From a virus (lineage: Duplodnaviria; Caudoviricetes), in IMG/VR virus record IMGVR_UViG_3300011989_000257, positions 128,001 through 192,000 of that record: 64,000 bases of DNA; one strand, given 5' to 3'. Positions 32,712-54,827 of the stretch are shown here, in pieces. The translations under genes and the position numbers were made by a program. Position 1 is the stretch's first letter. Each line of letters begins with the position of its first letter. Below the pieces are notes generated by a model. That model did no database searches, had not been told where the DNA came from, and saw only the letters and a program-made list of their open reading frames with translations.

Positions 32712-32986
32712 AAAGAAATAAGAGGTGTAAGGGCACATTTAACGTAGCGTTTTAGCGTAGTGTCGGTGGTAAGTCCCAAAACACCTTTAGGTAGGATAAA
32801 ACAAACCATAGCGAATGGTAAGGTGAGGGAAGTGTAGGAGCGTTGCAGCCAGAGAGCCACTCTCACGTTGGAATACCAAGATTGGGGAAACCTACCATTT
32901 TGATTGAGAATTTCTGTTCTGAAGTCATATATCGTGTTTTTAGGTGAATATGGATGGGTTGTGTCGTGAGACATGACCCATTTTTT
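32712..32986 (+). ncRNA. Putative structured ncRNA transcription unit
   Basis: Promoter 32673-32706, no credible sense ORF, stems AGGTGT/ACACCT and GGTAGG/CCTACC, and terminator 32954-32986. Confidence 0.65.
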
Positions 32987-33067
32987 GTATTATTATAGAT
33001 TAAAATATAAATGCCCCTACCTTATTCAGATAGGAGCATAGATGTACTTAATTAAGTCCAATGGTGC

Positions 33068-33376
33068 TTATAGTTGCACCCCTTGTAGTATTGGGGATGG
33101 AATATCATCTATCCATACATCAACTGCATCGTACACCTCGCAGCCACCGTGTGATGTCATAAAAATGGTTGTGGTGATGCTCTTATAGTTCACATCAAAA
33201 AATGTGTTGTTTCCAATGAACTTGCTGCCGCAGAAACATGGGTCGATGTTTAGGTTGTAGCCATTCAGTTTCTTAAAAGCGTCCTCAAATTTCATGGTGC
33301 TAACCAAACGGCACAAATCCTCTCTGTCTCTCTTAGCGAGTTCTGTTGCTAACTTGATGATAATTTCTCTTTCCAT
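33068..33376 (-). CDS. Hypothetical early protein
   Basis: Promoter 33404, A-rich leader. Confidence 0.75.
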   Translation of the reverse strand: MEREIIIKLATELAKRDREDLCRLVSTMKFEDAFKKLNGYNLNIDPCFCGSKFIGNNTFFDVNYKSITTTIFMTSHGGCEVYDAVDVWIDDIPSPILQGVQL

Positions 33377-33530
33377 AATCTTTAATTGTTATTGTTTTGC
33401 TGGTGCAAAGATACGAAAAAAAATTGGAATAGCCAAACGAAAACAGATTTTTTTTTAGATTTATAATAAAAAATGTGCTGACTATCCTCACGGATAATCA
33501 GCACCTATATTGCTTATGGTCAAATCTTCT

Positions 33531-33782
33531 TTACTTTGTCATGGCTTTGAGTTCAGCCTTGATGCGCTTTGCAGTCTCACCTCTCCAAGTTGATGCGTTT
33601 CCAAGGAAATAGAGCACGATGGTCTTTGCTGAATCAAACATATAGTTGTCGTTGATAGAATCGAGCGTAGCCATTGCATCGAGGTATGGCTTTGCACCGA
33701 AATATACGTTCTTCCAATCGTTCTTGATGTCACGTGCAATCTCATAGAGAGGTCTTACGTTTGTTGTAGTTGTCTTTGCCAT
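33531..33782 (-). CDS. Conserved phage hypothetical protein
   Basis: RPLYEIARDI..DW..VYFGAKPYLDAM...YFL.NA.TWRGE. Promoter 33816. Confidence 0.8.
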   Translation of the reverse strand: MAKTTTTNVRPLYEIARDIKNDWKNVYFGAKPYLDAMATLDSINDNYMFDSAKTIVLYFLGNASTWRGETAKRIKAELKAMTK

Positions 33783-33971
33783 AATCTAAATCTGTTATTA
33801 ATTGTTGTTTGATGGTGCAAAGATACGAAAAAAAATTGAATTGGCAAAGAGAAACCAGTTTTTTAACATTTAATTAACATAGTTATATCATTTTCTTAAA
33901 AAGTATTAATAGGTTTGGTTATCTCACTGGAATTTCGTATCTTTGCATTACATTAATAAGATATAGTGTAT

Positions 33972-34178
33972 ATGGAAAAGAGAATCAAGTTTCAATATCA
34001 AGTGAAGCAAGTCAAGGGAATGTTCTCCGTGAGCACCATTGAGCGTTACGAGGTGAAAGAACTTATTCACGTTTGCGACCCCAATAAGAGCGACAGAGAG
34101 AATCTTGATGATGCTTTCTCGAAGGCTTGTGACTTGGGCGCTAATCCAAACAAGCAAGTTAGATGGAGTTTTATTTAA
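33972..34178 (+). CDS. Hypothetical early protein
   Basis: Promoter 33914-33947. Confidence 0.7.
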   Translation: MEKRIKFQYQVKQVKGMFSVSTIERYEVKELIHVCDPNKSDRENLDDAFSKACDLGANPNKQVRWSFI

Positions 34179-34192
34179 ATTGAAATAAGATT

Positions 34193-34477
34193 ATGGATAT
34201 TACAACAGAGATTAACAAGTTAAAAGCAGTTGCCAAGGAGAATGGTTTGGAAGTGAGGTTTCGTGACCATAAAACAAATATGGGTGATTTCTGCATATTT
34301 ATCTATGATAAATCTGTAAGAAAATCATATATGGTTGGCTTTGATGGGTATTGGGATAGTAAAACCTTGCCGTTTGATGTATGTCTGCGTTCAGCATACA
34401 ATTGGATTAAGAAGCGTGACAAACGTTACACCAAGGTAGATGGTATGTGGGTATATAATACGCATTTAAATCAATAA
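34193..34477 (+). CDS. Hypothetical early protein
   Basis: Coupled ORF with an AGATTATG leader. Confidence 0.7.
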   Translation: MDITTEINKLKAVAKENGLEVRFRDHKTNMGDFCIFIYDKSVRKSYMVGFDGYWDSKTLPFDVCLRSAYNWIKKRDKRYTKVDGMWVYNTHLNQ

Positions 34478-34505
34478 TAGTTTGTACTTTTTTAAGTCTT
34501 ATAAT

Positions 34506-34751
34506 ATGTTAATATTAGCAAAGTGTATTAAAGAAACATACACATGGGAAGGTGATGGAAAACAGCACAAGTTTTCAAAAGTTAAACTTGGTCACACTTA
34601 TGCATTCTCAGAGACCGCTGGAACCTATTGGCTTGATGTGTTTGCATCACCAAATAGAAAAGACTTTGAGGATTGCAATGGTTGGGTTCAAGCTTGTAAA
34701 AGAGGTCTTGAAAGTAAATATTTCAATGAAATGTTTAAAAGGGTAGATTAA
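34506..34751 (+). CDS. Hypothetical protein
   Basis: Start reassigned to ATG at 34506. Confidence 0.6.
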   Translation: MLILAKCIKETYTWEGDGKQHKFSKVKLGHTYAFSETAGTYWLDVFASPNRKDFEDCNGWVQACKRGLESKYFNEMFKRVD

Positions 34752-34874
34752 TTCTACCTTTTATTTTTAATTTAAAATAACAATGGGATAGGCTAATAAC
34801 CTATCCCCTTTTTGTAGACCATTGAAGATGGGCTTCAATGGCAACAACGTTGCCGTTGTACTTATTTAAGTCCA

Positions 34875-52761: not shown

Positions 52762-52763
52762 AA

Positions 52764-52874
52764 CTACTTCACCTCTTCTTTCTTCTGCCCAAAGTGAGTG
52801 ACGATGTGCGGAATTGCAACCAAGACACCAATCACAACCACAAGGGAAACAATCTGTAATACTGAAATATCCAT
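52764..52874 (-). CDS. Small single-TM protein (36 aa, not in ORF track)
   Basis: MDISVLQIVSLVVVIGVLVAIPHIVTHFGQKKEEVK. Promoter 52895. Confidence 0.6.
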   Translation of the reverse strand: MDISVLQIVSLVVVIGVLVAIPHIVTHFGQKKEEVK

Positions 52875-52989
52875 AACTCTTATTTATTTGTTAATGCAAA
52901 GATACGAAATTATTTTGAATTGACCAAGAAAAATCCCATTTTTTTTAGAAAAGTTGGTGGGGATTATTTCACCCCACCTAACCTTTGTC

Positions 52990-53550
52990 TTACTCGGCAG
53001 CAGCCATAGCCATAGCCATTTCCTCTGTCTTTGCAGTCTCTTCCACCTTTTTCGCAATGCCAAGTGTCTCAACTGACATCTTAGCGTTCTTCACGTTAAT
53101 CTTTGGATTGGGTTCACTCTTTGCAAGTGCTTCCTTGAAATCCTTTGTCTTTGTGGAATACTTGTCATAGAAACGACACAGAGCATGAGCCACGTTGGGG
53201 TTCTTGAACAACTTCTCGTTCTTGTGGTGCTTTGCGAACATTTCAAGCCACTTGAAAATGGTCTCGGCCTTTTTCTCGTCAATCTTATCGTAGCCGCCAA
53301 GGAACGTGCATAGACGATGTGCGTTCTTACCTACTGCGAAATACACAAGGTATGTGATAGGGTACTTGTCATGTGCGTTTGACAACTCTGTGAGTTTCTT
53401 GCAGATGTCGATGTGCAGCGCACGTTTCTCCTTATTCTGCGGCAGTGTAAACCAATTTGGCATACCTACACCCTTACCGCTACCACTCTCTGCGATTGCA
53501 CGTACACGTGAGTCGATTGTCACTTTCTTTGTCTTTGTCTCTTTTGCCAT
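52990..53550 (-). CDS. Hypothetical basic protein
   Basis: Promoter 53606, AGGAG leader, strongly biased codon usage. Confidence 0.8.
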   Translation of the reverse strand: MAKETKTKKVTIDSRVRAIAESGSGKGVGMPNWFTLPQNKEKRALHIDICKKLTELSNAHDKYPITYLVYFAVGKNAHRLCTFLGGYDKIDEKKAETIFKWLEMFAKHHKNEKLFKNPNVAHALCRFYDKYSTKTKDFKEALAKSEPNPKINVKNAKMSVETLGIAKKVEETAKTEEMAMAMAAAE

Positions 53551-53653
53551 AGTTTTAATCTCCTATTCTTTTAATTAATAATGTTATTTATTTCTTGTTT
53601 CGTGATGCAAAGATACGAAATTATTTTGAATCTACCAAATTTTATCTGGTATT

Positions 53654-53959
53654 TTAACCCATTTTAACAATTTCCTTTTCTTCAATCTCAATTCTTTCGG
53701 AATAATCGTCATAAAGACAATCAATATAAAATGATGTGTCGCTGCGTTCCAATGTGTAGTCACAATCTGCATCATCATCGTTTTGGTCTTTCTCTATCTC
53801 GTCAAGGTCAAGACCCTCATACTTACCATCTGAAAGCAAGGTGTGAACTTCATCGTCCATAACCTTTTTTGCAGTCTCAAAATCAGCACAAGGTGTAACA
53901 TTCACAAGGATTTCTCCATCACAATTACTTGTCTGAATTACATTAAAAATCTTTTCCAT
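53654..53959 (-). CDS. Hypothetical acidic protein
   Basis: Start reassigned to MEKIFN. Confidence 0.7.
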   Translation of the reverse strand: MEKIFNVIQTSNCDGEILVNVTPCADFETAKKVMDDEVHTLLSDGKYEGLDLDEIEKDQNDDDADCDYTLERSDTSFYIDCLYDDYSERIEIEEKEIVKMG

Positions 53960-53963
53960 AATC

Positions 53964-54422
53964 TTATTGTTTAATTGTGTAATAACTTGTAAAGTCATTC
54001 ATCTTATAGATGATATCTGCATCGTCACCATCTTGGAAATAGCCATTTTCAAGCCATTCAGATAGCCAAAGGTTCTCGACTTCATTGTTCTCATTGAATT
54101 TTACCCACAATTTGTAAACCTTTTCTTCCACACTGAAGAAAGCGAGGAAACCGCCATCATCCTCATGGTCAAAATAGTAACGATTAACCTTTATTTCAAA
54201 GACTTCCTTTGCGTTTATCTTGTTGCCATTCAAATCCTTGTAAGATTTATCTATTGCGATAGTTGTCACTATTCCAAATGGAGCAATGCAATTTTCATCA
54301 CGTTTGTCAAACTCGCATAAACGGGTATCTTCAACCACTTTCTTTGTGACTACATTCCCATAATAATGGGTATTTGCATTATCGAAACGAGTTATTTCAA
54401 CTCTTAACTTTGATTCAATCAT
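53964..54422 (-). CDS. Hypothetical protein
   Basis: Coupled ORF. Confidence 0.7.
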   Translation of the reverse strand: MIESKLRVEITRFDNANTHYYGNVVTKKVVEDTRLCEFDKRDENCIAPFGIVTTIAIDKSYKDLNGNKINAKEVFEIKVNRYYFDHEDDGGFLAFFSVEEKVYKLWVKFNENNEVENLWLSEWLENGYFQDGDDADIIYKMNDFTSYYTIKQ

Positions 54423-54425
54423 AGT

Positions 54426-54659
54426 TTAAAAACCAAATGAGAATACATAATAGTCATCTAAATCTACAAAAGGCATTTCGGCTTCAATAGCTTCCTCTGC
54501 ACTTGCATAAGAGTTTGCATCAATCTTAACGATTGTGTAGTTATCATCGTAGTCCTCTTCGGCTACCCATTCCTCTAAATCCTTTTCGGTGAGGTTTTCT
54601 ACTTGCTCCTTGCGATAATGTTGCTTATCGAGTAGGAATACTTTTTTGTCTCTTTCCAT
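54426..54659 (-). CDS. Small acidic protein
   Basis: Start MERDKK after promoter 54679. Confidence 0.7.
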   Translation of the reverse strand: MERDKKVFLLDKQHYRKEQVENLTEKDLEEWVAEEDYDDNYTIVKIDANSYASAEEAIEAEMPFVDLDDYYVFSFGF

Positions 54660-54827
54660 ATCTCCTTTATTTTGTTGGTGCAAAGTTACGAAATTATTTT
54701 CAATCTACAAAACATTTTGAGGTAAAAATCTGGTCTTTTAACACTTATTAACAAAAAAGGGGTTGAGAATTGCTTCCCAACCCCAAATAATAGGTAAAAA
54801 TGAAAAGTATGACAATATAGAAAGAGT

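Follow-up and report, generated by a model that had tools for sequence, protein, structure and literature searches.

The window analysed here is a stretch of 64,000 nucleotides (nt) corresponding to positions 128,001-192,000 of the 412,514-bp virus record IMGVR_UViG_3300011989_000257, which is rated complete by CheckV, and it carries a long minus-strand array of small genes in which short stretches located just before transcription terminators are antisense to translation-initiation regions of the phage itself. This anti-leader feature is real and above chance at about five modules of the array. The stretches concerned, four to five in number, are termed antiSD1, antiSD2, antiL3, antiB and, probably, antiL4 (Table 1); their complementarity to the leaders exceeds chance, they are conserved, they occupy a characteristic position and they are predicted to be accessible. 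The reading that we favour, tentatively and at a little less than even confidence, is that they may be functional antisense RNA elements directed against the phage's own initiation regions.

The array comprises about 45 small open reading frames (ORFs) at 33-59 kb of the window, and nearly every unit opens with a near-identical promoter module of about 34 nt (TTTGGTnAnTTCAAAATAA-TTTCGTATCTTTGCA) followed by an A-rich leader, very similar from unit to unit, of the type AACAATTAAA(AGGAG)ATTAGATTATGG. Terminator-like hairpin sites are enriched three-fold (31 against 10.7 in shuffles). An earlier note on this DNA had proposed that many of these terminators are preceded by trailers whose reverse complement reads like a leader plus start codon. 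All the trailer sequences it quoted are present where it had placed them, and both of its perfect complementarities hold: 13 nt between 48432-48420 and the leader 38983-38971, and 14 nt between 39989-39976 and the leader 39344-39331. Each of its eight cited trailers was compared by RNAduplex to 48 leaders and to 200 dinucleotide shuffles, z being computed from the mean of the five best duplexes. Five of the eight performed better than the shuffled controls, namely 46975-47006 (antiL4) and 39955-40000 (antiL3), both with z = -5.0, 48412-48438 (antiSD1, -4.2), 50957-51030 (antiB, -3.6) and 45666-45695 (antiSD2, -3.4). The remaining three did no better than their controls (32899-32953, +0.65; 54785-54827, -0.67; 48568-48603, +0.63). 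The complementarity to the phage's own initiation regions is thus confirmed for a subset of the pre-terminator segments.

Because these examples had been hand-picked, unbiased tests were also run. A scan of 16 minus-strand non-coding segments (3.2 kb, 500 shuffles) detected seven perfect complements to leaders of at least 12 nt, as compared to 1.13 +/- 1.04 in shuffles, and four of at least 13 nt against 0.38 (P = 0.002). At k = 12 the orientation controls gave no match for the complement only, two for the reverse only and three for the sense orientation, against the seven antisense ones. By scanning the 55 nt before the terminator position of all 29 promoter-upstream modules, we obtained z values of -5 or lower at three units, 50886, 46890 and 39877 (antiB -5.8, antiL4 -5.4, antiL3 -5.5), and of about -2.5 at units 54693 and 45597; a coding segment at 52909 scored -3.5, the hit at 33830 corresponded to a divergent promoter and the remainder lay near 0. 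With above-chance complementarity at about five of about 29 promoter-upstream modules, "many terminators" was an overstatement. We also profiled leader-derived 11-mers in the 123 modules of six phages that lack a divergent promoter. Antisense 11-mers occurred 83 times in 19 of these modules, as compared to 10-19 occurrences in 6-8 modules for each of three control orientations, nearly all of them lying between 120 and 70 nt before the promoter motif, a position immediately 5' of the terminator. The predicted duplexes span about -25 to +11 of the start regions, and each element pairs with 5-17 of the 48 leaders at -14 kcal/mol or lower. Leader types are matched, the anti-Shine-Dalgarno (anti-SD) elements antiSD1 and antiSD2 being directed to SD-bearing leaders and antiL3, antiL4 and antiB to SD-less ones. 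Two further approaches were rejected: an nhmmer leader profile (16 hits from 61 leaders, none of them antisense in the region) was too insensitive for 30-nt motifs, and the 14-mer TTTAATCTCCTTTT, being antisense to a common ribosome-binding region, matched more than 100 unrelated phages in IMG/VR and was judged too unspecific.

Divergent promoters can mimic the feature. They are located just upstream in 39 of the 162 promoter modules of the six phages, and the apparent antisense leaders of these 39 modules are therefore ordinary leaders of the opposite strand, as exemplified at 33933 by a promoter on the plus strand. Some caution is therefore in order where an array contains divergent promoters, about a quarter of the "antisense leaders" being true leaders on the other strand.

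Relatives were collected with a conserved non-coding RNA (ncRNA) motif and by DNA search, yielding two complete genomes (409.5 and 412.4 kb) and several fragments at roughly 70-85% nucleotide identity; a helicase query found only phages at 75-94% protein identity. In alignments of four to six phages, 86-95% of the motif columns are invariant as compared to 24-33% elsewhere in the same intergenic regions, conservation being thus concentrated in the seed, as expected of small RNAs (sRNAs) derived from 3' ends. In predicted folds antiSD1, antiSD2 and antiL4 are unpaired and abut strong hairpins (z from -2.4 to -4.9) with U-runs, and parts of antiL3 and antiB are engaged in weak AU hairpins.

AntiSD1 lies 4 nt past the 3' end of tRNA-Leu(UAA) in the window and in the relatives G001 and G002, and is a perfect 13-nt complement of the leaders at 38969 and 43107. 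Thirteen of its 14 columns (93%) are invariant in six phages, against 33% of the other intergenic columns, and it is kept despite sequence differences in the upstream tRNA-Leu, whose place is taken in G003-G005 by the end of a coding gene. The stem of the terminator behind it displays compensatory changes between phage groups, and the U-run of this terminator overlaps the -33 element of the next promoter. AntiSD2 is located where an ORF-free structured block (45848-45634; about 250 nt) ends, and it recurs in four of five phages. The distance of both anti-SD motifs to the next promoter motif is 70-73 nt, except for one copy in G001 with 79-80 nt. A further anti-SD-like stretch at 45810-45800 is specific to the window, is not conserved in the relatives and was not counted. 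The short motif GTTAAA(A/G) is repeatedly found within terminators or immediately behind them, at many sites and always before the -33 element, both in this phage and in its relatives (for instance at 48405-48398, 46905-46897 and 54745-54735).

At 40410-39927 on the minus strand, a promoter drives a tRNA-like ncRNA unit whose 3' end is occupied by antiL3, before the terminator at 39954-39927; antiL3 shares perfect complements of up to 18 nt with four leaders. The unit has its own promoter at about 40410-40377, a stem-closed module and one or two tRNA-like elements, which carry the T-arm GGTTCGATTCC and are not called as tRNAs by ARAGORN. The antiL3 core is kept in all six aligned phages and in three further IMG/VR records, with 12 of 14 columns (86%) invariant in the four phages scored, and it is retained in G001 and G002 although their second tRNA-like element is deleted. 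A 96-nt stretch of this unit is 86% identical to positions 274,704-274,797 of the genome, within a tRNA cluster.

AntiB ends an ORF-free unit of about 1.1 kb (52045-50925, minus strand) that runs from a consensus promoter to a terminator with no ORF of more than 40 codons. It is complementary to about -23 to +11 of start regions such as that of gene 33376, with a best duplex of -24.2 kcal/mol, and 95% of its columns are invariant in six phages as compared to 24% of the others, the following terminator being divergent. Just upstream of antiB, ARAGORN calls a tRNA-like gene with a 4-nt anticodon in G004 and G005, and a matching T-arm-like stretch was seen by eye in G001-G003. The 3' end and terminator of this unit (GGATGGG..GTCGTGAGA..CCCATTT) resemble those of the plus-strand ncRNA 32705-32983. 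AntiL4, the probable fifth member, is a near-perfect complement of the leader of gene 50842 (duplex -24.8 kcal/mol). The earlier note's description of pre-terminator antisense stretches is thus confirmed in part; most of their carriers are the 3' ends of non-coding or tRNA units and not mRNA trailers.

Table 1. Anti-leader elements, their surroundings and the cited trailers that do no better than shuffled controls (window coordinates; UTR, untranslated region).
Feature	Coordinates	Strand	Description
antiSD1	48420..48433	-	anti-Shine-Dalgarno/anti-leader stretch UUUAAUCUCCUUUU
antiSD2	45669..45679	-	AAUCUCCUUUU; directly 5' of terminator 45667-45634
antiL3	39972..39998	-	27-nt reverse complement of the SD-less leader type; core CUUUUUAAUUGUUA at 39985-39972
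antiB	50964..51004	-	41-nt block, 39 of 41 columns invariant; before terminator 50960-50925
antiL4 (probable member)	46979..47005	-	27 nt right after the stop codon of gene 47405-47007
tRNA-Leu (anticodon UAA)	48438..48523	-	ARAGORN and Rfam RF00005, 37 bits
Terminator hairpin and U-run after antiSD1	48366..48416	-	predicted fold
Target array of small genes	33000..59400	-	about 29-33 repeated promoter modules, consensus TTTGGTnAnTTCAAAATAA-TTTCGTATCTTTGCA
Trailer	32899..32953	+	3' part of promoter-to-terminator ncRNA 32705-32983; z = +0.65
Trailer	54785..54827	-	3' UTR of gene 54998-54828; at most weak signal
Trailer	48568..48603	-	3' UTR and terminator upstream of tRNA-Leu; z = +0.63

From these properties we infer how the elements may be transcribed, processed and paired in vivo, and with what regulatory outcome. 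Most of them lie at the 3' end of a tRNA, tRNA-like or other ORF-free unit whose promoter is of the same class as that of the small-gene array, and because they follow tRNA or tRNA-like elements, their release by tRNA-type processing is plausible. Such 3' processing, or another endonucleolytic cut, would free an RNA of 60-90 nt composed of the seed and the terminator hairpin; maturation of tRNA-Leu(UAA) at its 3' end would in this manner free the antiSD1 trailer. The seed would then pair with the SD-like or A-rich leader and start codon common to many host-promoter-driven, presumably early, mRNAs, and this pairing would block initiation, the gene class being damped or timed out as the stable RNA accumulates. 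In its most developed form, which we regard as doubtful, the proposal would amount to an RNA-based timer in which tRNA and tRNA-like processing handles free at least four antisense RNAs covering both leader types, about 40 genes, and translation of the early array is shut off. The data agree equally well with a trans-acting sRNA and with action in cis on read-through transcripts. No convincing pairing of the ncRNA units with their own 5' ends (panhandle) was noticed, as judged by eye and with no dedicated computation.

Several observations weigh against a functional antisense role. The ncRNA units and their presumed targets have the same promoter type, so that a switch would need a differential stability, which we assume. 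The 19 modules with antisense 11-mers collapse to about four orthologous loci and thus provide few independent observations. The motifs are near-invariant, only close relatives are available, and seed-target covariation is uninformative within six phages. The conservation count is partly circular, a motif regular expression having been used to collect the loci, although a synteny-based alignment of these orthologous loci, made independently of that expression, came before the count. AntiL4 is rich in U, and its conservation in the relatives is only partial. Finally, the RNA data consist of assembled metatranscriptome contigs from four runs, with no ends, strand or usable depth and with possible DNA carry-over; the bin 40097-40393 has the highest contig word depth in all four libraries, which is not interpretable as expression.

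Among the other explanations, chance complementarity between U-rich trailers and A-rich leaders suffices for the three cited examples that do no better than shuffles, and it agrees with the near-zero z of most modules, with the low complexity of antiL4 and with a genome-wide frequency of the 9-mer ATCTCCTTT close to expectation (4 and 10 occurrences per strand, roughly 2.6 being expected). It is disfavoured for the four core elements: shuffles and orientation controls are exceeded, three of these elements hardly vary across four to six diverged phages, and antiSD2 is found again in four of five; that there is no feature at all is in our view very unlikely. We give still less credit to the idea that the stretches are genuine leaders of small opposite-strand ORFs. 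The 39 modules with divergent promoters show that such leaders do exist, and the reverse strand of antiB has an ATG and a frame of 13-19 codons, starting with MENKER in those of the aligned phages that were read through (by eye, not translated with a tool). However, none of the five elements is preceded by a plus-strand promoter motif, and the antiB frame is variable both in length and at its C-terminus. On the strand opposite to antiSD1 and antiL3 neither a start codon nor a frame is conserved, and these two elements overlap tRNA or tRNA-like RNA there. The micro-ORF explanation, which the earlier note had itself named as a possible refutation, therefore fails for at least these two conserved elements and is only remotely possible for antiB.

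Two explanations retain more weight, although we consider each of them rather unlikely. The elements could be cis-acting read-through insulators, each acting only within a transcript that has passed the terminator, where it pairs with the leader of the following gene (about 110-130 nt further on) and so masks the start site; the downstream gene would then be translated only from its own promoter, and the long duplex might make an RNase III-type site. In minimum-free-energy folds of the read-through RNA, antiSD1 and antiSD2 indeed pair with the SD of the next leader, and the anti-SD motifs lie at a fixed distance from the next promoter motif. AntiSD1 moreover pairs strongly with the leader downstream of it in all of the six phages, with ranks of 1-7 among 16-33 and energies from -13.7 to -21.4 kcal/mol where the medians are -6 to -10. 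Conversely, antiSD2 is kept in G001 and G002 in front of an SD-less leader that pairs no better than the median (-7 kcal/mol). AntiL4 and antiB pair best with leaders far away (50842 and 33376) and not with their neighbours, and the strong terminators argue that read-through is a minority product. About as improbable is an explanation at the DNA level or as an evolutionary by-product, in which the stretches are inverted leader copies that PeSL-like recombination among the about 40 cassettes has left behind and that gene conversion keeps alike, or else orientation-independent sites where a regulator binds DNA, the leader DNA being bound by it as well. Read in reverse complement, antiL3 and antiL4 resemble whole leaders including promoter-proximal bases, which suggests inverted duplication, the array has the composite terminator-promoter architecture of PeSL elements (PMC2839356, PMC4122927), the cargo upstream of the same module differs between phages (tRNA or coding gene) and the distance of the anti-SD motifs to the next promoter is nearly fixed. 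Yet an inverted promoter is absent from every element, even though no part of the cassette is better conserved than the promoter, and a 14-nt motif is too short for homology-driven conversion and nevertheless invariant where adjacent bases vary. The orientation bias (seven antisense against three sense matches at k = 12) and the strict position 5' of terminators also speak against it, and an origin by inverted duplication would in any case be compatible with a present function.

Read as functional antisense RNAs, the elements can be compared to several known systems. According to a summary in PMC5320573, RNase P excises the c4 RNA of P1/P7, which then occludes ribosome-binding sites; as in that account, a phage RNA would here be freed from a longer transcript by a tRNA-processing enzyme, with exposed stretches pairing to the phage's own mRNA. 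The c4 seeds are hairpin loops that act on one operon in lysogenic immunity, whereas here linear seeds follow tRNA or tRNA-like elements and precede a terminator, and the presumed targets are dozens of mRNAs with a common leader. The Rfam covariance model of the C4 antisense RNA had no match in our Rfam 15 scans, which returned only tRNA at the gathering threshold and, with E values up to 1, additional sub-threshold matches to Yfr11, FopS and rli47 that were treated as noise. AntiSD1 resembles the 3'ETS-leuZ of E. coli in being a trailer between a tRNA 3' end and a terminator, which tRNA maturation would free. The 3'ETS-leuZ is known as a sponge for other sRNAs and not as a repressor of initiation regions. 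Its position is reproduced by antiSD1 after tRNA-Leu and by antiB after the tRNA-like gene called by ARAGORN in G004 and G005; antiL3 follows uncalled tRNA-like elements, some of the carriers here thus being tRNA-like RNAs that ARAGORN does not accept, and antiSD1 in G003-G005 and antiL4 follow coding genes.

In Bacteroides, GibS represses mRNAs through a single-stranded 5' seed acting on initiation regions (PMC7366714). The likeness extends to a conserved and extended single-stranded seed, initiation-region targets, an AT-rich RNA, the lack of Hfq (PMC7366714) and a phylum whose mRNAs are mostly without SD sequences. GibS is chromosomal, intergenic, directed to metabolic targets and experimentally validated, whereas the elements described here are putative regulators, phage-borne, located at 3' ends and directed against the phage's own repeated leader. 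The PeSLs of T4-type phages likewise flank small, poorly conserved genes with a repeated stem-loop and early promoter (PMC2839356, PMC4122927). As with PeSLs, the cargo at the same cassette varies between relatives, a tRNA or a coding gene preceding an identical module and a tRNA-like element being inserted or deleted, which may indirectly hint at shuffling through the cassettes. PeSLs are described as recombination modules, with no antisense element among their parts, and the promoter here is of the Bacteroidota type. Compared with these systems, the anti-leader tails would be a variant of phage antisense RNA and of 3'-derived sRNA.

As to the three cited trailers that did not exceed their controls, 32899-32953 is not conserved in G001 or G002, and 54785-54827 reached z = -2.4 on a shifted 55-nt window, with no perfect complement of at least 12 nt. 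On the minus strand, 48527-48601 gives a sub-threshold match to the FopS family (RF04319; 29.5 bits against a gathering score of 56, E = 0.87), which probably reflects the resemblance of a hairpin and U-tail only. Upstream of the trailer 32899-32953, positions 32790-32896 on the plus strand belong to a structured RNA family that occurs a second time in the window (about 52118-52200, minus strand) and in at least five other IMG/VR phage records (loci L009-L015). Its members share a closing stem GGTAGG...CCTACC around a variable middle, a conserved ATAAAACAAACCA hairpin and a ACCAAGATTGGGGAAACC block that is identical in all; where the closing stem is longer, it is so on both of its sides, and the family has no Rfam match.

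About 40 copies of the promoter module are present in the window, mostly on the minus strand of the array, with plus-strand copies at 18723, 32692, 33933 and 59500, and 27 of the 37 exact promoter 15-mers of the whole genome fall in this window. The module fits the Bacteroidota consensus (-33 TTTG / -7 TAnnTTTG), and the promoters point to a Bacteroidota host. Near-identical DNA is present in bovine and sheep gut metagenome runs, and the phage, a rumen phage of 412 kb, is apparently virulent. Megablast with 20 kb of the region found no match among INPHARED phages. Between a terminator and the next promoter, 47560-47720 (minus strand) is very AT-rich, ORF-free and internally repeated (TATAATAATATATT-type), a GC-rich palindrome GTGCGCACGTGTGCGCAT stands beside this stretch at 47608-47625, and a similar AT-rich repeat is found at about position 51,573 of the genome. 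Outside the window, ARAGORN detects 42 tRNA or tRNA-like genes and a transfer-messenger RNA at 266-298 kb and 378-379 kb of the genome. The set includes one call with an aberrant 2-nt anticodon and a tRNA with anticodon CUA (reading UAG), which may hint at late stop-codon reassignment or suppression.

Strong SD-like boxes (AGGAGATTA) occur in 15 of 77 genes at 160-200 kb of the genome (window 32-72 kb) as compared to 12 of 433 elsewhere, and the genes that bear them, concentrated in this part of the genome, are the presumed targets of the anti-SD elements. No bS21 gene was found in the phage. To our knowledge, the switch-off of the early programme is largely unknown in giant phages and entirely so in uncultured megaphages of Bacteroidota. 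If the favoured reading is true, a single short RNA could control dozens of mRNAs through their shared leader, with its release coupled to tRNA processing, which would constitute a simple class-wide translational control and would explain conserved non-tRNA sequence in phage tRNA regions. The concentration of SD-like boxes is notable because ribosomes of the host phylum sequester their anti-SD (PMC7797042, PMC9976891). The anti-SD elements bear on these strong boxes in a subset of the phage genes and would, if the reading holds, act in a phylum whose ribosomes normally ignore the SD.

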